DNA from: Patescibacteria group bacterium
Lineage (GTDB): Bacteria > Patescibacteriota > Minisyncoccia > Phycocordibacterales > JACOZG01
Length of the DNA stretch: 64,000 nt
NCBI GenBank assembly: GCA_034658935.1
Contig: JAYEGE010000008.1
Coordinates: forward strand, 3,400-67,399
Reading direction: 5' to 3'
The position numbers were made by a program, and so were the translations under genes. The notes under the pieces were generated by a model. It did not search any database, was not told the DNA's origin, and was given only the letters and a program-made list of their open reading frames with translations. Position 1 is the stretch's first letter, and each line of letters opens with the position of its first letter. Positions 1,906 to 38,418 of the stretch are shown one piece after another.

Positions 1906-3777
1906 ATGGCCAGAAAGTTTACGTTGATCGCTGTGGTTTTGGGTACGGTTTTTGGTCTGGGGGCAGGATGTCCACCCCACCTCGATGTGACGCCTGTAGT
2001 GCCACTACATGTCGGCATTGAGGCGCTTGACTCCGATACTGGTGAGCCACTGGAGGTTGATGGGGCGCGACGACTTGAAGTGTCGGTTGGCACTTTGGTG
2101 CATTTTGTGCCGATAGAGGTGTCGCCTCCGGCCCAAGGCGGGGGCGTTGCCGACCAGGATGCTAGTCCGGCTGGACTAGCATCTAAGCCGAAGGGGGCTG
2201 CTTTGAACAAGCTGCCTTTTTCGGAAGCGACTTTCCATTGGCGAGTCTCGAGCGAGAGTGTTCCTCGGGAATCGACCTATGACTTCAATTACACGTTTGC
2301 AACCGCGGGCGTGTATGAAGTGGCCTTGCTCCGGGTTGACGTTCATTACGTTAACCCATTGGTGATTAGTCAGGATAAAGCCAGGTTACAAGTGGTGGTA
2401 TCAGAGGAGCCGATTGTGCTTCCTCCGATTCCTCCTCCACCGGTGCCTGACCCAGGGCCGCCATTTTTTACTGGCGGTGTTGAGATCAATGGCCTGATTT
2501 TCTTTGACGGCGAGTTCAGTCTCGGTGCCGGAGAGACTCTGCGCATTGATGGCACGGGCGTGGTTAGTGGGGGGCGTTTGCCCTACACGATCCAGGTGAT
2601 TGGTTCAGACGGAACCGTCTTGGCCGAGAGTTTGGGATTGAAGTTGGACTGGACGCCAACGGAGTCGGGTACTTACACCATCCGTGTCATCGATGCGGAT
2701 GGTCGGACGCTCGATTTGGTGATTGTGCTGATTCTGATCTGCCCACCAGATTCGCCCGTGCCACCCATTCCGCCTACCCCCACCGTTAACCTGAAAATCA
2801 ACGGTGGGGACGGGCCACTAGAGCTTGTTACTCTAGCGCCAGGAGGAGTCTCGGCCAACCTCAGGTTGTCCTGGGGTTCATCTGACGCTGAAACCTTAGT
2901 CGCCTCGAGCGCCTGGTCTGGTAGCAAGTCTCTCAGTGGAACAGAAACCGTCAACGGCTTGCCGGCAGGTGACTACCTTTTTACCTTAGCGGCGACCGGT
3001 GATGGCGGTACGGCGACGGATAGCGTGGGAGTCCACGTTGTTGATCCGGCGCCGAATCTCTATCGCCTGAGGGTGACCCATACTGGCGGTGGAGACGTTA
3101 GGATTTCTCCCGCAGGTGATGGTGGTTATGAAGAAGGAGTGGTTGTCACTCTGACGGCTGTTCCCGAAACAGGCTATCGCTTCGTTGATTGGGGGGGTGA
3201 TCTGTCGGGATCGACGAGTCCTACCTCTATCACTATGGATGGTAACAAGGCGGTTACAGCGAGCTTTGCTCGCCTGACCTACGCCATTACCGCCAGTGCT
3301 GAACTTGGAGGCAGCATCGATCCTGAGGGCATCGTAATGGTCGCCCATGGCGACGACCAGCGTTTCGATTTCGTGCCCGACCCGGGCTATGAGATATTCA
3401 TGCTCTGGGTTGACGGTTTGATGGCTGATGTGGCTCTGTCTTACACATTTACCGACATGGCGACGGGTCACAACATTAGCGTGACTTTCCGGGAAATCGT
3501 TCCCCGGCCTCTGATGGCAGAGATTGTCTCGCCGGAGAATGGCACACACCATGATGTCGGCGATGAGATAATTTTCAGGGCCGAGACAAGTGGTGGTACG
3601 CCGCCTTACACTTACCATTGGTTGTTTCCAGACGGCAGTAACGTCTGGACCGACCAGGCGGGCCTTGGACACGTGTTCGATTTCGAAATCCAGAACGGGT
3701 CTGTCTATATGCAGGCTCGAGACGGAGCCGGGCTCTTGAGTCCGGTAACCCAAACCATCATCTGGGTTTACCCGTAA
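1906..3777 (+). CDS. large secreted/lipoprotein-like protein with Pro-rich linkers, InlB-B-repeat (Listeria-Bacteroides repeat)-like beta domains and a C-terminal PKD-like domain
   Basis: ATG at 1906 (MARKFTLIAVVLGTVFGLGAGC...) gives a signal or lipoprotein-like N-terminus. PPIPPPPVPDP and PPIPPTPT act as linkers. Two repeat domains (YRLRVTHTGGGDVRISPAGDGGYEEGVVVTLTAVPETGYRFVDWGGD... and YAITASAELGGSIDPEG...) are followed by PPYTYHWLFPDGS, which resembles a PKD motif. Confidence 0.55.
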   Translation: MARKFTLIAVVLGTVFGLGAGCPPHLDVTPVVPLHVGIEALDSDTGEPLEVDGARRLEVSVGTLVHFVPIEVSPPAQGGGVADQDASPAGLASKPKGAALNKLPFSEATFHWRVSSESVPRESTYDFNYTFATAGVYEVALLRVDVHYVNPLVISQDKARLQVVVSEEPIVLPPIPPPPVPDPGPPFFTGGVEINGLIFFDGEFSLGAGETLRIDGTGVVSGGRLPYTIQVIGSDGTVLAESLGLKLDWTPTESGTYTIRVIDADGRTLDLVIVLILICPPDSPVPPIPPTPTVNLKINGGDGPLELVTLAPGGVSANLRLSWGSSDAETLVASSAWSGSKSLSGTETVNGLPAGDYLFTLAATGDGGTATDSVGVHVVDPAPNLYRLRVTHTGGGDVRISPAGDGGYEEGVVVTLTAVPETGYRFVDWGGDLSGSTSPTSITMDGNKAVTASFARLTYAITASAELGGSIDPEGIVMVAHGDDQRFDFVPDPGYEIFMLWVDGLMADVALSYTFTDMATGHNISVTFREIVPRPLMAEIVSPENGTHHDVGDEIIFRAETSGGTPPYTYHWLFPDGSNVWTDQAGLGHVFDFEIQNGSVYMQARDGAGLLSPVTQTIIWVYP

Positions 3778-3900: not shown

Positions 3901-5112
3901 ATGAATAATATGTTGAAAAATATAGGTTTAATGGCCTTGGTGGCGGTATTGACTGCTACTATGGTGCTACCTGCGAGTATTGCTGTGGCCAACGATGATT
4001 TGGCGACCAGTATTATTTCGCCAAACAATGCTGCTGTTTTTGAGGTGGGGGAAGACATCACTTTCTCTGGTCAGGCGACTGGCGGTGAGGCTCCTTACGC
4101 TTTTGTTTGGAATTTTGGTGACGGCACCGAGGGTGGCGGCCAGAATTTCACCAGGGCTTACTCTGAGGCAGGCGATATGGTAGTGACCCTTACTGTTACT
4201 GACTTCGCCGATAGTACTTCTGAAGTGAGTCATACGATTACCATCAATGAGGCGCCTGTCAATGCTCCTACCGTTGATTTGAAGGTTAATAATGAGGATG
4301 GTCCTGTAACTATCATCGAAGGCACGGTGGCCACTCTTAGTTGGTCTACCACTGACGCTACTGAGTGTGTTGCTTCTGGTGCCTGGTCTGGTGATAAGTC
4401 TATTGGTGATTCGGAGTCTTTCGATGATCTAGTTGCTGGTACTTATGCCTATATTTTGACCTGTACTGGCTTTGGCGGTTTGGCTAATGATTCGGTGACA
4501 GTAAACGTTGAGGAGATTGTTGATCCTACAGATACTACGCCTCCTACAGTGCCGACTATCACCTTCGCCTCTCATAACGAGGGTGAGACCTCAGCTGATA
4601 CTACTGCCAAGATTTCTTGGACCGAGTCTGCAGATGAGGGTTCTGGTTTAGCCGGCTACTCCTTCCTCTGGGATCATGGTTCTGACACTGCTCCTGATAG
4701 TACTATTGATTCTACTATTACCACTTATACTCAAGCTCTCGGTAATGGCACTTGGTACTTTCATATTGTCGCTCTCGACAATGCGGGCAATGTGTCTAGT
4801 CCGGTAACTCATTACGGTCCGATTACCATTGAGGTCGGGGATGTATTGCCGCCAGTGATCAGTAATATTCGAGTAACCGATATTACCCAGACTGGTGCCA
4901 CTATCCGCTGGGATACCGACAAGCCAGCTAATAGCCGGGTGATCTACGATACAGTTTCTCACTCAGACATCAGTGGCGAGTCCGAGCCTAATTTCGGTTA
5001 TGCTTTTTCGAGTGAGACCCTCAACGAGGACCCTCTTGTGACTGAGCATGCTGTAACTTTGACTGGCTTGACTGCTGATACCCAGTACTTCTTCCGCGTC
5101 TTATCTCGCTGA
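3901..5112 (+). CDS. secreted PKD-domain / fibronectin-III-like repeat protein
   Basis: Signal peptide. Canonical PKD motif APYAFVWNFGDGTEGGGQNFTRAYSEAGDMVVTLTVTD. The downstream segment VISNIRVTDITQTGATIRWDTDKPANSRVIYDT is FN3-like. Confidence 0.6.
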   Translation: MNNMLKNIGLMALVAVLTATMVLPASIAVANDDLATSIISPNNAAVFEVGEDITFSGQATGGEAPYAFVWNFGDGTEGGGQNFTRAYSEAGDMVVTLTVTDFADSTSEVSHTITINEAPVNAPTVDLKVNNEDGPVTIIEGTVATLSWSTTDATECVASGAWSGDKSIGDSESFDDLVAGTYAYILTCTGFGGLANDSVTVNVEEIVDPTDTTPPTVPTITFASHNEGETSADTTAKISWTESADEGSGLAGYSFLWDHGSDTAPDSTIDSTITTYTQALGNGTWYFHIVALDNAGNVSSPVTHYGPITIEVGDVLPPVISNIRVTDITQTGATIRWDTDKPANSRVIYDTVSHSDISGESEPNFGYAFSSETLNEDPLVTEHAVTLTGLTADTQYFFRVLSR

Positions 5113-15543: not shown

Positions 15544-16090
15544 GGCTTGGTGCCGGGCAATTAATCCAATGTTTGGCGTTGGGTAGGAAAGTCCGGACAC
15601 AGCGATTCCTTTATTTAATAAGGGATGGGAATGGTAGCGGCTCCGATGCTCCATAGGGAACTATAGAGTTCGGAGCTCCGACCCTCGATGTAATATCGGG
15701 GCGTCGGAGGTAACGCCCGTCCTCCGATGGACATCGGAGAGGGATGCGAGCAGAGACGTCGAGGGCGAGAGCCTAAGACCCCTTCAGGGTGATGCTCATG
15801 GAGACGTGAGCTTGAAACGGCAAAATTCCTACCTCTGTGCAAGGTCGTGCCCAGCACCACTTTCAGAAAAGTGGTGCTGGGAGTGCCGCTATAGGCGATT
15901 GGCGACAATCGTCACAGATAAATGATTGCCACCAATTTTGTTCACCACAAGTGAGTACAAAATTGAGTGCTCCGACTTTACGTCGGAGTTAAACCCCGAC
16001 GACCTGTCGGTATCGGGGTACTCGATTTTGCGTCCACCTGCGGTGGGCAAAATCGGCACAGAATCCGGCTTATGAGCACCAAGCCACCAA
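15544..16090 (+). ncRNA. rnpB: RNase P RNA (bacterial type), unusually long, about 545 nt
   Basis: Contains AGGAAAGTCCGG (P4 5' strand), ATAGGG and ACAGAATCCGGCTTAT (P4 3' strand). The P1 stem pairs ggcttggtgc (15544-15553) with gcaccaagcc (16076-16085). A terminator hairpin lies at about 16107-16135. Confidence 0.7.
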
Positions 16091-20477: not shown

Positions 20478-20852
20478 AGGTTAGTCCCGCCTCTTCGGCG
20501 TACCCATACGTTTTCTACTGCTTCGATAGGGTGGCACTCAGTTACCTACGGCGATGGCCTCTTTGTAGCGGTGGCATATGATGGCACCAATAGCGCGATG
20601 ACTTCACCTGACGGCATTACTTGGACAGCTCGTGCGACCGCGGAAGTAAATTTTTGGTACAGTGTTACCTACGGCAATGGCACCTTCGTGGCAACGGCTG
20701 GTTCTGGCACCAACCGTGTCATGACCTCAGGAAAAGCCGATCTCTACGACAATCCACACGATAATATCTACCAAGGTGGTATGTCCATCATGGGCGGTAA
20801 CGTCGGCATGGGAACAACCACTGACATTCCACGAGGCTCAACCTCGTGGTAA
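20478..20852 (+). pseudogene. 5'-truncated fragment of a repeat protein (WxSVTYGNGxFVA tandem repeats)
   Basis: The open frame starts right after a stop, with no ATG or RBS. It contains GWHSVTYGDGLFVAVAYDG...ITWTARATAEVNFWYSVTYGNGTFVATAGSG. The ORF track gives it a GTG start at 20571. It sits between tRNA-Gly and the IS-like element. Confidence 0.4.
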
Positions 20853-21583
20853 GATAGGGTTATGTCTAGGCAGATTGAGTTCTCGGTTGACGAATTTTAT
20901 CATCTCTATAATCGCGGTAATGATAAACGCGATATTTTTTTAAGCTCGGCCGACAGGCGTCGCTTTACTGCTTTATTATATCTCTCCAACTCTTGCCACT
21001 CCTTCCACTTCGAGGAACTAAAAAATGCCCCATTTGATTTTGATCGTGGGGCGGCTCTGGTCGATATCGGGGCCTATTGTTTAATGACCAACCATTACCA
21101 CTTGTTAGTCCGAGAACGTCAAGAAAATGGTATCAGTCAATTTATGCATCGTCTGTCCACTGGCTACACCATGTATTTTAACAAGAGGTGGCAACGTCGC
21201 GGTTCGTTATTCGAAGGTCGTTTCCGCGCCAACCATGCCGGTGAGGACAGGTACCTTCATTATTTATTTGCCTATATTCATCTTAATCCGGTCAAAATGA
21301 TTCAAGCGGATTGGCGGGTGATTGGTTTGAAAGACAAAGCATCGGCCAAAGATTTTCTCGGCCAATATTTATACTCGAGTTATCAAGATTGTCTTGGTTT
21401 GAAGCGTGAGAGTGGCAAACTGCTTGCTCGAGAGGCTTTTCCTGACTATTTCTCCGAATCGAATGAGTTTGATAGTTTTTTATCTGATTGGTTGAATTAC
21501 CATGACCACGAGGTTGAGCCTCGTGGGGAGAGGGGGCTAAAGTGACTTGACCTTTTAAGATTCCACGAGGCTCAACCTCGTGG
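20829..21583 (+). mobile_element. IS200/IS605-like mini-element 1 (Y1/HUH transposase gene bounded by palindrome ccacgagg-ctcaa-cctcgtgg)
   Basis: Identical hairpins at 20829-20849 and 21563-21583, both within the direct repeat attccacgaggctcaacctcgtggt(a/t)aag. An inverted copy lies at 21506-21526. Total length 755 bp. Confidence 0.65.
20862..21545 (+). CDS. Y1 HUH transposase (IS200-like / RAYT-like)
   Basis: CLMTNHYHLLV (HUH motif) and YLFAYIHLNPVK (catalytic Tyr motif). Length 227 aa. Paralogous to 43120.. and 57321.. Confidence 0.7.
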   Translation: MSRQIEFSVDEFYHLYNRGNDKRDIFLSSADRRRFTALLYLSNSCHSFHFEELKNAPFDFDRGAALVDIGAYCLMTNHYHLLVRERQENGISQFMHRLSTGYTMYFNKRWQRRGSLFEGRFRANHAGEDRYLHYLFAYIHLNPVKMIQADWRVIGLKDKASAKDFLGQYLYSSYQDCLGLKRESGKLLAREAFPDYFSESNEFDSFLSDWLNYHDHEVEPRGERGLK

Positions 21584-22224: not shown

Positions 22225-22444
22225 GTTTGCTTGCCCTCGTAGCCCCGACGCCTTTGCATAGGGGTCGGGGTCCCGACTGAAGCAAGGCGAACGTCGGGAT
22301 TCAATGATAGACTTTGTGCGAAGTGGTTTGCTTGCCCTCGTAGCCCCGACGCCCTTGCATAGGGGTCGGGGTCCCGACTGAAGCAAGGCGAACGTCGGGA
22401 TTCAATGATAGACTTTGTGCGAAGTGGTTTGCTTGCCCTCGTAG
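22225..22444 (+). repeat. 101-bp tandem repeat (2.2 copies) whose 5' 18 bp equals the first 10 nt of tRNA-Arg plus its 8-nt leader
   Basis: Unit starts at 22225, 22326 and 22427, so the period is 101 bp. Each unit has two hairpins with cccgac/gtcggg stems. Confidence 0.8.
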
Positions 22445-22506
22445 TTCAATGGATAGAACGGCCCCCTCCTAAGGGGCAGATGCAGGTTCGACTCCTGCCG
22501 AGGGCA
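22435..22506 (+). tRNA. tRNA-Arg (anticodon CCT)
   Basis: Manual fold: acceptor gccctcg/cgagggc, anticodon loop ctCCTaa, T-loop ggttcgactcc. Confidence 0.8.
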
Positions 22507-22665
22507 AAAAATAAAAGAGACTTATGCGTATGTATGAGGCGACTGTTATTTTTTAGCCCTCGGCAGGAGTCGGGGTCGAGAGTACTTAGATTTTTGCGAA
22601 TGCCTGGAGTAAAAAGCTTAGTAACTCGTGACCGACTCCCCCTCCTCCACCCTATTTTATATACT

Positions 22666-22694: not shown

Positions 22695-22771
22695 CTAGCA
22701 GTTCTTCGAAATCGGCAATTGACTGCGGTTGATTGCCACTTTTACTCTTTTTTCCAGGGAGGAAAAATATC

Positions 22772-23458
22772 ATGTTGCCGAATCCTTTTCCGGTAGTGTT
22801 GGAGTTCGAGGTCGCAAGGAACGCGAACCACAGGGCAAGGGGGGCAAAGCAAATTGCCGCCTTTGGCCGCAATGGGGACAAATTTGTCTCTGATCGTGAC
22901 GGCAGACACCAGCCTCGTGCTGGTGAGACCTGGTTGTGTCGAGCGCACACCCAGATCGGGCGGATCAAGCGCCGGGGTCATCGAGACGGGCGTCTCATCC
23001 TCGTTGTCTTGGAGGCACGGTTGACGGCCAAGACCAAAACCCTCGTCTTCTCATACGATGAGGACGAGTGGGTGCGTCTCGGCGCGGTGAAGGATGATTG
23101 TTTTCATCGGATATCTGATGTCACGCCGCCTTTTTGGAGGCGCGCGGGCGAGTTTGTCTGCCGAGCGGTGCTTGACCTAGAAGGCTGTGGTGACGATGAA
23201 GAGCCCCAGCCTCGGCGTATTGGCTTCGACGAGGAGAATCGGCCGATCTTCCTCGTCGTCCCTGAACGCCCCTCAGAGGAGGAGGCCCGAATATTGTGGG
23301 CGGCTAGGGTGGCGAAGAGTAATGAGCCGCATCGGCAAGCTCGTCTGAGGGCAGTGAAGGATCGCATCCCCGTGGAGGACGCGGTAGCGAGGATTTGCCT
23401 CGGTGGCAGCCTCTTCAACGGAGTTATTACGGCAGGGCCCGAAACCAAATCAGCCTAA
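22772..23458 (+). CDS. GC-rich, Arg-rich orphan hypothetical protein
   Basis: ATG at 22772 has a GGGAGG RBS. No recognisable domain. GC content is clearly above the flanks. Confidence 0.4.
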   Translation: MLPNPFPVVLEFEVARNANHRARGAKQIAAFGRNGDKFVSDRDGRHQPRAGETWLCRAHTQIGRIKRRGHRDGRLILVVLEARLTAKTKTLVFSYDEDEWVRLGAVKDDCFHRISDVTPPFWRRAGEFVCRAVLDLEGCGDDEEPQPRRIGFDEENRPIFLVVPERPSEEEARILWAARVAKSNEPHRQARLRAVKDRIPVEDAVARICLGGSLFNGVITAGPETKSA

Positions 23459-23552: not shown

Positions 23553-23849
23553 ATGAACCACATGAGTCCGGAGGAGAAGAAGTTGCTTGAAGAGGCAGTT
23601 GGTCTATCACGCGAAAATAATAAGATGCTCCATCGCTTGCAGAGTGCCATGCGTTGGGGTCGTTTCTATTCCATCCTTAAGTGGGTCATTATTGTCGGCT
23701 TCACTTTTGGAGTCTATTATTATCTCCAGCCGTATTTGATTGGCCTTATTGATGCCTACCAAGCCGTGTCAGAAGGATTAGATGAGGTTAGGGAGGCGGG
23801 GAGTAATCTACCCGACTTCTCTGGTTTGCTTGATAGATTCGGTCAATAA
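23553..23849 (+). CDS. small hypothetical membrane protein
   Basis: One TM helix (WVIIVGFTFGVYYYL). Confidence 0.4.
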   Translation: MNHMSPEEKKLLEEAVGLSRENNKMLHRLQSAMRWGRFYSILKWVIIVGFTFGVYYYLQPYLIGLIDAYQAVSEGLDEVREAGSNLPDFSGLLDRFGQ

Positions 23850-23862
23850 GTAACAAAGCCTC

Positions 23863-24126
23863 ATGGCCTATGTCTATATTCTTCGCTGCGATGGCAATCG
23901 TTATTATGTGGGCAGTGCAGTTGATTTACAAAAGAGGCTTAAACATCATGATAGAGGTCTAACTCCCTCGACAAAAAGATTAGGAAATTGCCACTTGGTT
24001 TTGTCTCAAGAGTACGAAACCTTGATTGATGCTAGATTAGTGGAGGGTAAAATTAAGAAGTTGAAAAGAAAAGATTACATCGCTAGAATGGTAAAAGATG
24101 GCGTAATCAAAGTAATGCCTCGGTAG
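23863..24126 (+). CDS. GIY-YIG nuclease family protein (small stand-alone)
   Basis: MAYVYILRCDGNRYYVGSAVDLQKRLKHHDRG shows the GIY-YIG motifs. Its 3' end overlaps tRNA-Phe by 10 nt. Confidence 0.75.
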   Translation: MAYVYILRCDGNRYYVGSAVDLQKRLKHHDRGLTPSTKRLGNCHLVLSQEYETLIDARLVEGKIKKLKRKDYIARMVKDGVIKVMPR

Positions 24127-24188
24127 CTCAGTGGTAGAGCGCCTGCCTGAAGAGCAGGGCGTCGGTGGTTCAATTCCGCCCCGAGGCA
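24117..24188 (+). tRNA. tRNA-Phe (anticodon GAA)
   Basis: Manual fold: acceptor gcctcgg/ccgaggc, anticodon loop ctGAAga (G37 is atypical for Phe), T-loop ggttcaattcc. Confidence 0.7.
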
Positions 24189-24189
24189 C

Positions 24190-24352
24190 ACTCGTACTTA
24201 CTTGGTAGCTTGTCCCGACCGGTTTGCGTGCGTCGGGAAGCGCCTGCCCCCGACGTTTCAGTCGGGGCGGAGCTGAAGAGCAGGGCGTCGGTGGTTCCCC
24301 GCCCGACACGCAAGACGAGCTTGCGAGTCGTTGCGGGCGGGAATTCCGCCCC
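24190..24352 (+). repeat. degenerate tRNA-Phe-like copy (anticodon arm through 3' end plus CCA) interrupted by three small GC-rich hairpins
   Basis: agcgcctgc[ccccgacgtttcagtcggggcggag]ctgaagagcagggcgtcggtggttc[44-nt hairpin]aattccgccccgaggcacca. The D-arm region is replaced by the hairpin tcccgac...gtcggga. Confidence 0.6.
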
Positions 24353-24466
24353 GAGGCACCACTTGTATCCCCGTCTTACTATTTACTTCTCAGCTATAGT
24401 TTGTTATAATCCTTTTAGTATTAGATGGTAGGTCTATGTCTCTTGGCAGGAATAGGGAGTTTAGTT

Positions 24467-36416: not shown

Positions 36417-36667
36417 ATGGTCGGCGAATCGAGTGGACTATAATTGAAAATGTGCGAACCTTTTTTAAGCGAAACGCCTGCGGCGTTTCGCAAAATCCCA
36501 AACTGCTCAGGCGGGGCGGGAAGGAAAGGGGTTGAAGGGGAAAGGAATTCCCGCCCTCCGAAAAAATTTCGCAGCGTTCTTTGAAAATTCCAAATCCCTT
36601 AATGAGTTAATCATAACTCATTTCAGAAAATTTTTCAACAAAAAATATTCTGATTCGGTGGTAAGCT

Positions 36668-38341: not shown

Positions 38342-38418
38342 TGGTGGGCGATACAGGGCTCGAACCTGTGACCTTCTCAACGTCAATGAGACGCTCTAGC
38401 CAACTGAGCTAATCGCCC
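38342..38418 (-). tRNA. tRNA-Val (anticodon GAC), CCA encoded
   Basis: Reverse complement folds as gggcgat...ttGACgt...ggttcgagcc...atcgccc-a-cca. Confidence 0.8.

Follow-up and report, generated by a model that had tools for sequence, protein, structure and literature searches.

A GIY-YIG nuclease gene joined to a tRNA-Phe gene beside a second, hairpin-interrupted tRNA-Phe copy in a Patescibacteria genome

To our knowledge, the Ssn nucleases are the only characterised small single-domain GIY-YIG proteins that go together with hairpin repeats found across the genome. Seg proteins measure about 200 amino acids (aa) or more and have DNA-binding domains, and we know of none with associated hairpin repeats, fusion to a tRNA 5′ end or duplicated tRNA fragments. 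Integrative elements that target tRNA genes employ tyrosine or serine recombinases, usually replace the 3′ part of the gene, and are kilobases long. Ssn nucleases act on single-stranded DNA, where they bind their own hairpin and make a cut a few bases upstream of it (PMC11893778). The paper that describes SsnA/NTS of Neisseria and the Ssn-related motifs (SRM) likens the repeat-gene-repeat layout to that of an insertion sequence and compares it with REP-associated tyrosine transposases (RAYT) and their REP repeats (Chenal et al., Nat Commun 2025; PMC11893778). The GIY-YIG protein SegB of phage T4 is thought to spread together with adjacent tRNA DNA (PMC2330249), and the only introns described in Patescibacteria tRNAs are group I introns, which are self-splicing ribozymes in the anticodon loop (35/36 in newly described cases) (PMC13011429). 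Here we describe a locus in a 64,000-nt stretch of a Patescibacteria group bacterium (the window; from a metagenome-assembled genome, assembly GCA_034658935.1, contig JAYEGE010000008.1, positions 3,400 to 67,399) at which a small GIY-YIG gene runs into the 5′ end of an intact tRNA-Phe gene (copy 1) that is followed by a second copy (copy 2) interrupted by three hairpins. We put at roughly 60% the probability that copy 2 is what is left, in disabled form, of a tRNA-Phe gene split by a 341-bp nuclease cassette (positions 6-76 with the CCA and the native trailer), and that nuclease and hairpins form a selfish pair residing at tRNA 5′ ends in Patescibacteria. As a pseudogene copy 2 alone matters little; the interest lies in the recurrent nuclease-hairpin-tRNA arrangement that it exposes.

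The locus comprises the following features, in order.

23858-23862, plus strand: GCCTC, tRNA-Phe positions 1-5, 8 nt after the stop of a conserved 98-aa gene and immediately before the ATG of the GIY-YIG gene
23863-24126, plus strand: GIY-YIG nuclease gene, 87 aa, single domain, UPF0213-like and Ssn-like (Pfam GIY-YIG, E=1.1e-11)
24061-24089, plus strand: promoter-like site TTGAAA-17-TAGAAT in the 3′ end of the nuclease gene, 27 nt 5′ of copy 1 (from a consensus scan alone)
24117-24188/9, plus strand: copy 1, tRNA-Phe(GAA) (ARAGORN; Rfam tRNA model, 69 bits)
24190-24203, plus strand: copy 1 trailer, 14 nt, ACTCGTACTTACTT, which by sequence comparison looks like a shortened copy 2 trailer
24204-24210, plus strand: copy 2 block 1, GGTAGCT, tRNA positions 6-12, repeat of copy 1
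24211-24238, no strand assigned: D-loop insert, 28 nt in place of the 9-nt D loop (from its fold and hairpin-family comparison)
24239-24248, plus strand: copy 2 block 2, AGCGCCTGCC, D-stem 3′ strand to anticodon-stem 5′ strand, repeat of copy 1
24249-24272, no strand assigned: anticodon-side insert, 24-25 nt, at the 5′ edge of the anticodon loop, position 31/32 or 32/33
24273-24297, plus strand: copy 2 block 3, CTGAAGAGCAGGGCGTCGGTGGTTC, anticodon loop to the first three T-loop bases, 25/25 identical to copy 1
24298-24341, no strand assigned: T-loop insert, 44-nt compound hairpin between positions 56 and 57 (fold -17.1 kcal/mol)
24342-24361, plus strand: copy 2 block 4, AATTCCGCCCCGAGGCAC plus CA, the rest of the T loop, the T-stem and acceptor 3′ strands, discriminator A and CCA
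24362-24395, plus strand: copy 2 trailer, ending in TATTTACTTCTCAGCT, which faintly resembles the junction of copies 1 and 2, TACTTACTTGGTAGCT

Copy 1 is the clean tRNA-Phe(GAA) that the first-pass annotation took it to be. Both ARAGORN and the Rfam model recognise it, and it is followed by CAC instead of CCA, so that no CCA is encoded. We presume it to be the working tRNA-Phe gene that supplies the cell, and the promoter-like site at its 5′ side could drive it. The overlap of the GIY-YIG stop with copy 1 that had been noted at first is also real: the last three codons of the gene and its TAG stop coincide with tRNA positions 1-10, TAG being U8-A9-G10. The GIY-YIG domain of the encoded protein spans residues 1-70 of 87, and no further domain is present. 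When the profile of the nuclease family is compared with structures in the PDB, the best relatives are the uncharacterised UPF0213 proteins BH0048 and EF2693 (BH0048, E=3.6e-10). Homologs of the 87-aa protein are 57-66% identical to it, and its N-terminus matches a group I intron endonuclease model weakly (24.5 bits, against a cut-off of 56). A homing endonuclease of the Seg or I-TevI type was considered and rejected, as the protein is 87 aa long and lacks the linker and DNA-binding domain.

Copy 2 (24204-24361) repeats copy 1 positions 6-76 in four blocks that are identical at 60/60 nt, and it ends in CCA. It had first been read as a 3′-half duplication that begins at the anticodon stem; the terminal CCA stands, but the copy starts at tRNA position 6 and thus covers far more than a 3′ half. 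Similarly, the 5′ acceptor strand that was reported missing is indeed absent locally, but its first five bases (GCCTC) are found 341 bp upstream, and the encoded CCA is the only one at this locus but not in the window, where a tRNA-Val at 38342-38418 encodes CCA too. One hairpin lies in or beside the loop of each cloverleaf arm. The two hairpins first described as 25 nt before the anticodon loop and 44 nt in the T loop are the inserts at 24249-24272 and 24298-24341, and the D arm, which had been thought to be replaced by a third, has lost its loop to the 28-nt insert while keeping part of its stem (GCT/AGC). All three inserts fold as hairpins, and do so better than most or all of their shuffled versions (z-scores of -2.1 for the D-loop, -2.9 for the anticodon-side and -4.8 for the T-loop insert). 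The trailers of the two copies differ by substitutions and indels, unlike the exon blocks, and that of copy 2 overlaps a promoter-like site for the next open reading frame (ORF).

To place the locus among its relatives we searched with the 98-aa gene (a small membrane protein, 23553-23849). The gene order tRNA-Gly(CCC), tRNA-Arg(CCT), 98-aa gene, tRNA-Phe(GAA) is common to the window and the relatives, which in L017-L019 and 14 GTDB genomes have a single tRNA-Phe within about 20 nt past the 98-aa gene, the outcome of a comparison that the first-pass annotation had proposed. At this locus none of these relatives has a GIY-YIG gene, a second tRNA-Phe or a CCCGAC hairpin; in L021 the tRNA-Phe is inverted. 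The absence of nuclease gene, copy 2 and hairpins from these genomes indicates that they are additions in the lineage of the window. GCCTC sits exactly where the relatives begin their tRNA-Phe, 7-20 nt past the 98-aa gene. The 83-aa ORF downstream had no significant match in the loci of the relatives and was left out of the synteny evidence. An exact 25-mer of the tRNA retrieved nothing from GTDB genomes, and from JGI metagenomes just unrelated tRNA arrays with ordinary tRNA-Phe genes. The closest neighbours by Hsp20 (73% identity) were of no help, with a HepT/MNT pair and not a tRNA at this position, save for L009, which has a single inverted tRNA-Phe.

The hairpins belong to a family with 7-bp stems of the form NNCCGAC...GTCGGNN. 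The window holds six CCCGAC...GTCGGG hairpins, against 0.10 expected by chance, in agreement with the stem type named in the first-pass annotation, and all six lie at the copy 2 locus or just 5′ of tRNA-Arg. We tabulated the stems directly, with no covariance model, as a MAFFT alignment of hairpin pairs had misaligned their variable loops. Among hairpins with a CCGAC/GTCGG core from six genomes, both outer positions pair in 33 of 34 although six different outer dinucleotides occur, which amounts to covariation for a 7-bp stem. The D-loop hairpin TCCCGACC...GCGTCGGGA (24213-24238) fits the consensus of the second hairpin (hpB) found beside homologous nuclease genes, and the anticodon-side hairpin CCCCGACGTTTCAGTCGGGG (24248-24267) is of the first-hairpin type (hpA), sharing its first 13 nt with the hpA of a Giovannonibacteria genome (L037). 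The anticodon-side hairpin is also the reverse complement of the second hairpin of a repeat unit at tRNA-Arg (see below) with 9 nt deleted. No family hairpins were found in the 14 relatives' loci that are without the nuclease gene.

The association of hairpins, tRNA fragments and nuclease gene is found at other tRNA genes. Searching with the nuclease protein, we retrieved five homolog loci that could be placed on contigs (57-64% identity), all from other Patescibacteria.

L034: GCGCCCATAG, CCCCGAC..GTCGGGG, TCCCGAC..GTCGGGA, CTCAGTTCG, ORF, tRNA-Lys
L037, complete Giovannonibacteria genome: the layout of L034 before tRNA-Val(CAC)
L041: the layout of L034 before a tRNA that is cut off by the contig end
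L042: the layout of L034 before tRNA-Met
L043: nested hairpins (hairpins inside hairpins) at position 15/16, before tRNA-Arg(TCT)

In all five a tRNA 5′ fragment comes first, then hairpins at position 10/11 or 15/16 and what remains of the D loop, then the ORF and last an intact tRNA. The canonical hairpin pair lies directly 5′ of the ORF in four of the five, with nested hairpins taking its place in L043, whereas in the window hairpins lie about 90 nt 3′ of the ORF. The stop of the ORF is the TAG of tRNA positions 8-10 in the window, L034, L037 and L041. In L037 a full-length tRNA-Val(CAC)-like copy (3234-3365) lies downstream and is interrupted by a hairpin pair at position 10/11; ARAGORN calls it only once the pair is removed, and its top one or two acceptor pairs are mismatched. 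The sequence of this interrupted tRNA-Val is not that of the intact tRNA-Val beside the ORF, so the intact gene there is not a local duplicate, and the comparison shows that the clean tRNA beside a nuclease gene need not be one.

In the window itself the arrangement recurs, less its nuclease gene, at tRNA-Arg.

22233-22434, plus strand: two tandem 101-nt units 5′ of tRNA-Arg(CCT), from sequence and folds (Tandem Repeats Finder: period 101, 2.2 copies, 99% matches)
22435-22507, plus strand: intact tRNA-Arg(CCT) after the two units (ARAGORN, Rfam tRNA model)

Each unit consists of tRNA-Arg positions 1-10 GCCCTCGTAG, hpA, hpB, a piece that resembles a D loop (TTCAATGATAGA) and a duplicated leader. 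Judged by this make-up, the units are a form of the nuclease-hairpin-tRNA element without the nuclease gene, of which L042 holds another gene-less version.

How did copy 2 arise? The cassette at 23863-24203 (341 bp) consists of the GIY-YIG gene, the intact copy 1 and the 14-nt trailer. GCCTC at the ancestral start of tRNA-Phe, together with a copy 2 that resumes at position 6, means that one insertion explains both boundaries, and suggests that the cassette split tRNA-Phe between positions 5 and 6 in a single event. Exon blocks that are identical beside trailers that differ fit two once-functional alleles better than a decaying tandem copy; copies 1 and 2 may thus be two alleles that were both under selection until recently. 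GCCTC itself would be the 5′ end displaced from copy 2 or else a target duplication of 5 bp. The latter belongs to the strongest competing explanation, in which positions 6-76 and the trailer were duplicated in tandem by slippage or unequal crossing-over, the 5′-truncated copy decayed and collected hairpins, and the GIY-YIG gene inserted separately with duplication of GCCTC. Such a course finds support in the head-to-tail arrangement of the copies, 14 nt apart, in the likeness of the copy 1 trailer to a shortened copy 2 trailer with a third weak echo after copy 2, in the clear tandem amplification at tRNA-Arg, and in exon blocks as identical as a recent duplication would leave them. However, two independent events would have to share the same 5/6 boundary, and the divergence of the trailers contrasts with 60 unchanged exon nt; nor would two such events explain the order of fragment, hairpin, ORF and tRNA in five other genomes or the sequence difference between the two tRNA-Val copies of L037. 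We rank two events below a single insertion and regard them as unlikely, albeit well short of negligible.

Several observations weigh against our preferred interpretation. The GCCTC match is short (5 nt). The bases 5′ of GGTAGCT in copy 2 (GTACTTACTT) and in copy 1 (GTAATGCCTC) agree at 6 of 10 positions, a hint that the duplicated stretch may extend further in the 5′ direction. That 60 exon nt show no substitution next to three insertions and a D-loop deletion calls for very fast hairpin insertion or for gene conversion. Unlike the five other loci, the window has no hairpins 5′ of the ORF. The exact locus occurs in one genome alone, which leaves no intermediates that would give the order of events, and a second assembly does not cover the interior of copy 2 (24202-24329). 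Finally, the proposed association of nuclease and hairpins rests on six loci, each of which was fetched by way of the protein itself.

If a single insertion did occur, the sequence of events might have been as follows. A cassette carrying an intact tRNA-Phe would have landed between positions 5 and 6; copy 1 would then have supplied the tRNA-Phe of the cell and made the remainder redundant, and the redundant remainder would have taken up three members of the hairpin family. By analogy with Ssn nucleases and RAYT transposases, the nuclease may bind its own hairpins where the DNA is single-stranded and cut at a distance of a few bases. Repair of the breaks could spread hairpins and create partial tRNA duplicates, and redundant fragments would gather further hairpins, preferentially in loops (the D, anticodon and T loops here; nested in L043). 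As selection would keep one tRNA copy clean, hairpins are seen just in redundant fragments. Two distances are weak evidence for such cutting: the 5/6 junction lies 9 nt 5′ of the stem of the D-loop hairpin, and a hairpin at position 10/11 lies 10 nt from the -1/+1 boundary where ORF and tRNA join.

We next consider whether copy 2 has a function. It could be a split tRNA or one with several introns, its inserts being removed, a regulatory or decoy RNA that resembles a tRNA, or a docking site of the element. We counted as a tRNA any cloverleaf scoring >29 bits with the Rfam model RF00005 or called by ARAGORN. Copy 2 did not match the Rfam tRNA model even at E<=10 and was not called by ARAGORN with intron mode on or off; at permissive thresholds Rfam placed no known family in it. 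When the hairpins were removed in silico and GCCTC was joined to the blocks, ARAGORN called a tRNA-Phe, and when the local 5′ sequence TACTTGG was used instead, there was no call. The D loop that remains after this removal has 4 nt and lacks G18/G19. An intron-containing or split tRNA was rejected given this D loop and the distance of 341 bp to positions 1-5, and a group I intron given inserts of 24-44 nt and the absence of any intron family from Rfam scans of the window and the region. In favour of a function one can point to the perfectly conserved exon blocks, the encoded CCA, the location of the hairpins in loop regions, the tolerance of the same hairpin family inside an RNase P RNA gene, the analogous interrupted tRNA-Val of L037, and a 10-nt stretch of the anticodon-side insert (TCGGGGCGGA) that is the reverse complement of the tRNA 3′ strand (TCCGCCCCGA). 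Yet copy 2 has no contiguous 5′ acceptor strand, its inserts are far too short for group I introns (PMC13011429), and it is absent from relatives, which together with the failed model matches and the lost G18/G19 makes a functional copy 2 improbable. The non-canonical tRNA-like RNA offered as an alternative in the first-pass annotation likewise has no support, with no conservation in relatives, no matching model and a D loop that lacks G18/G19. The other proposal of that annotation, a duplicate or remnant colonised by miniature hairpin repeats, is borne out by the verdict of the tRNA detectors, the single tRNA-Phe of relatives and the occurrence of the hairpin family in other genomes. Copy 2 is most likely a non-functional relic, a pseudogene of tRNA-Phe, and since there is no terminator between the copies it is probably transcribed merely as a trailer of copy 1.

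The first-pass annotation had also attributed the duplication to an integrative element. A classical integrase-driven element in the 3′ part of tRNA-Phe, with attL and attR duplicated and the element later deleted, would draw on the fact that tRNA genes are common integration sites, on the direct repeats of tRNA sequence present here, and on the direct and inverted copies of tRNA 3′ ends that relatives show 3′ of tRNA-Phe and tRNA-Arg. It is very improbable all the same: the repeat consists of positions 6-76, not the 3′ part, and encloses 14 nt (341 bp counted from GCCTC), the intervening DNA being the GIY-YIG and tRNA-Phe cassette; Pfam and NCBIfam reveal no recombinase in neighbouring ORFs; and excision would restore one site, not leave two. 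An assembly artefact caused by repeated tRNA k-mers is scarcely credible even though contigs from a second assembler (run SRR26901924) break at 24201 and 24330, inside the region, because both flanks are reproduced, among them the 3′ block with part of the T-loop insert attached. The inserts, moreover, are unique sequences that have relatives in other genomes, and no shared repeat exceeds 25 nt.

The contigs of the second assembler reproduce copy 1 and 12 nt of the spacer, and one of them (L002) has the T-loop insert's right end followed by the CCA-bearing 3′ block; since a different assembler reproduces both edges, we take the arrangement to be real. These contigs end at 22606, 24201 and 24330, each time beside tRNA-fragment or hairpin regions, where strain variation or low coverage could be responsible.

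Members of the hairpin family lie elsewhere in the window, in L037 and in L042, including in an RNase P RNA gene, an apparent 23S rRNA gene and a ribosomal protein gene.

15970-16019, no strand assigned: family hairpin pair, CTCCGAC..GTCGGAG then CCCCGAC..GTCGG..GGGG, within the oversized RNase P RNA gene

This RNase P RNA is of bacterial class A (15545-16088, plus strand) and measures 544 nt, compared with 367 nt for the model, and scores 57.5 bits against a gathering score of 100, for which reason a default Rfam scan missed it. It has large insertions, one of which, a stretch of about 110 nt that precedes the 3′ strand of helix P4, carries the family hairpins. L037 has family hairpin pairs at 1468-1512, 4694-4734, 1946-1984 and 3541-3582; they include pairs inside the L7/L12 gene, one in a sequence like the 5′ region of 23S rRNA (CCGAATGGGGAAACCC), and more in intergenic or ORF positions. 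A palindrome at 36514-36556 of the window, GGGCGGGAAGG...GGAATTCCCGCCC, has arms that resemble the outer arms of the T-loop insert (CCCGCCC/GGGCGGG, then AATTCC). The window also has a RAYT-like gene (20862-21545; Pfam Y1_Tnp, with a weak match to a REP-associated tyrosine transposase model) between tRNA-Gly and tRNA-Arg. We dropped it as a mobiliser of the CCCGAC hairpins because it has distinct flanking hairpins of its own, CCACGAGG(C/T)T(C/G)A(A/G)CCTCGTGG, at 20829-20849, 21506-21526 (in the 3′ coding end) and 21563-21583.

Other observations concern the neighbouring tRNA genes. In the window about 1 kb separates tRNA-Arg from the 98-aa gene and includes a 241-aa ORF with no family match (22733-23458); in relatives no more than about 60 nt lie between them. 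At 22490-22572 a palindrome with arms of about 26 nt is formed by the 3′ end of tRNA-Arg and the A run that follows (CGACTCCTGCCGAGGGCAAAAAATAA) together with their reverse complement, repeated 31 nt downstream. In four GTDB relatives a terminator hairpin comes after tRNA-Phe, and after it the acceptor and T-arm 3′ strands of this tRNA in an inverted copy (L022, 3450-3590; L027, 3627-3890; L031, 3433-3620; L032, 3336-3550). In three of these four the inverted copy is split at the same position by a 23-25-nt hairpin with different stems. About 100 nt follow in all four, containing AGCGAAGCGA in three of them, and then a direct copy of the tRNA 3′ end. At tRNA-Arg of L032 (1928-2252) inverted, direct, inverted and direct copies succeed one another. 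Permissive Rfam thresholds assigned no family to the elements 3′ of tRNA-Phe in relatives, and the inverted and direct copies may be a separate conserved element or a recombination scar. Upstream of the intact tRNA-Phe, L022 (3315-3326), L027 (3386-3495) and L033 (about 40 nt before tRNA-Phe, at 3333) carry partial duplicates of its 5′ part, from position 1 to about 12-22, along with a duplicated leader or promoter; these three loci have no CCCGAC hairpins and no GIY-YIG gene. In L024 and L025 (about 3228-3243) the protein match to the 98-aa gene homolog continues a few bases beyond the first base of tRNA-Phe, a sign that the 3′ end of this gene may overlap the 5′ end of the tRNA. The nuclease gene would then not be the only one that reads into a tRNA in genomes as compact as these.

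A broader proposal, which we put forward tentatively and hold to be possible rather than probable, is that these loci represent an undescribed element resident in tRNA genes. An Ssn-like GIY-YIG gene would be fused in frame to the first base of the tRNA, use the near-universal U8-A9-G10 as its stop, and travel or persist with a clean tRNA, while its cognate hairpins disable the resident copy and leave the host dependent on the tRNA of the element, an addiction by gene replacement; hairpins of this kind would also explain some puzzling insertions in RNase P RNA and 23S rRNA genes of the phylum. If the link between nuclease and hairpins is true, it would point to a concrete origin of the odd insertions that structural RNA genes of the phylum contain and explain tRNA gene fragments that confuse annotation, and each nuclease-hairpin pair could, by analogy, be a new specificity for cutting single-stranded DNA. 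Nowhere in the papers searched is a GIY-YIG gene described as fused to tRNA 5′ ends and accompanied by such hairpins, an absence that is no proof of novelty, and the element appears to be undescribed.

Of the systems with which the locus can be compared, the group I introns of Patescibacteria share with it interrupted tRNA genes, the phylum and being missed by standard tools (PMC13011429), but the inserts here are plain hairpins of 24-44 nt at three sites and match no intron model. Integrative elements that target tRNA genes likewise split a tRNA, restore its function with element-borne tRNA sequence and leave the displaced fragment as a direct repeat, whereas here the 5′ end is affected, no recombinase is present and the cassette has 341 bp. 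SegB of phage T4 resembles our nuclease in being encoded by a GIY-YIG gene among tRNA genes (PMC2330249). The REP/BIME repeats of RAYT (IS200/IS605-like) are likewise short imperfect palindromes that occur in inverted pairs, are scattered in the genome and flank the one nuclease gene with which they are linked; here that gene encodes a GIY-YIG protein rather than an HUH Y1 tyrosine transposase, which places the locus outside that group. As regards Ssn/SRM, the closest known system, the gene here is welded to a tRNA 5′ end and accompanied by tRNA fragments, whereas the main text of the Ssn paper makes no mention of tRNA (PMC11893778); the nearest solved structures here are UPF0213 proteins, and the published degenerate SRM motif has 0 matches in the window and L034, L037, L041, L042 and L043, where about 0.3 would be expected by chance. 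Membership of the nuclease in Ssn, which we draw by analogy, is unproven. Nevertheless, the two have in common a single-domain GIY-YIG protein of about 90 aa (87 aa here) and a gene that lies beside short hairpin repeats (20-50 nt in Ssn) found elsewhere in the genome as well, and a true link between nuclease and hairpins would extend the single-strand nucleases of the Ssn type to Patescibacteria.

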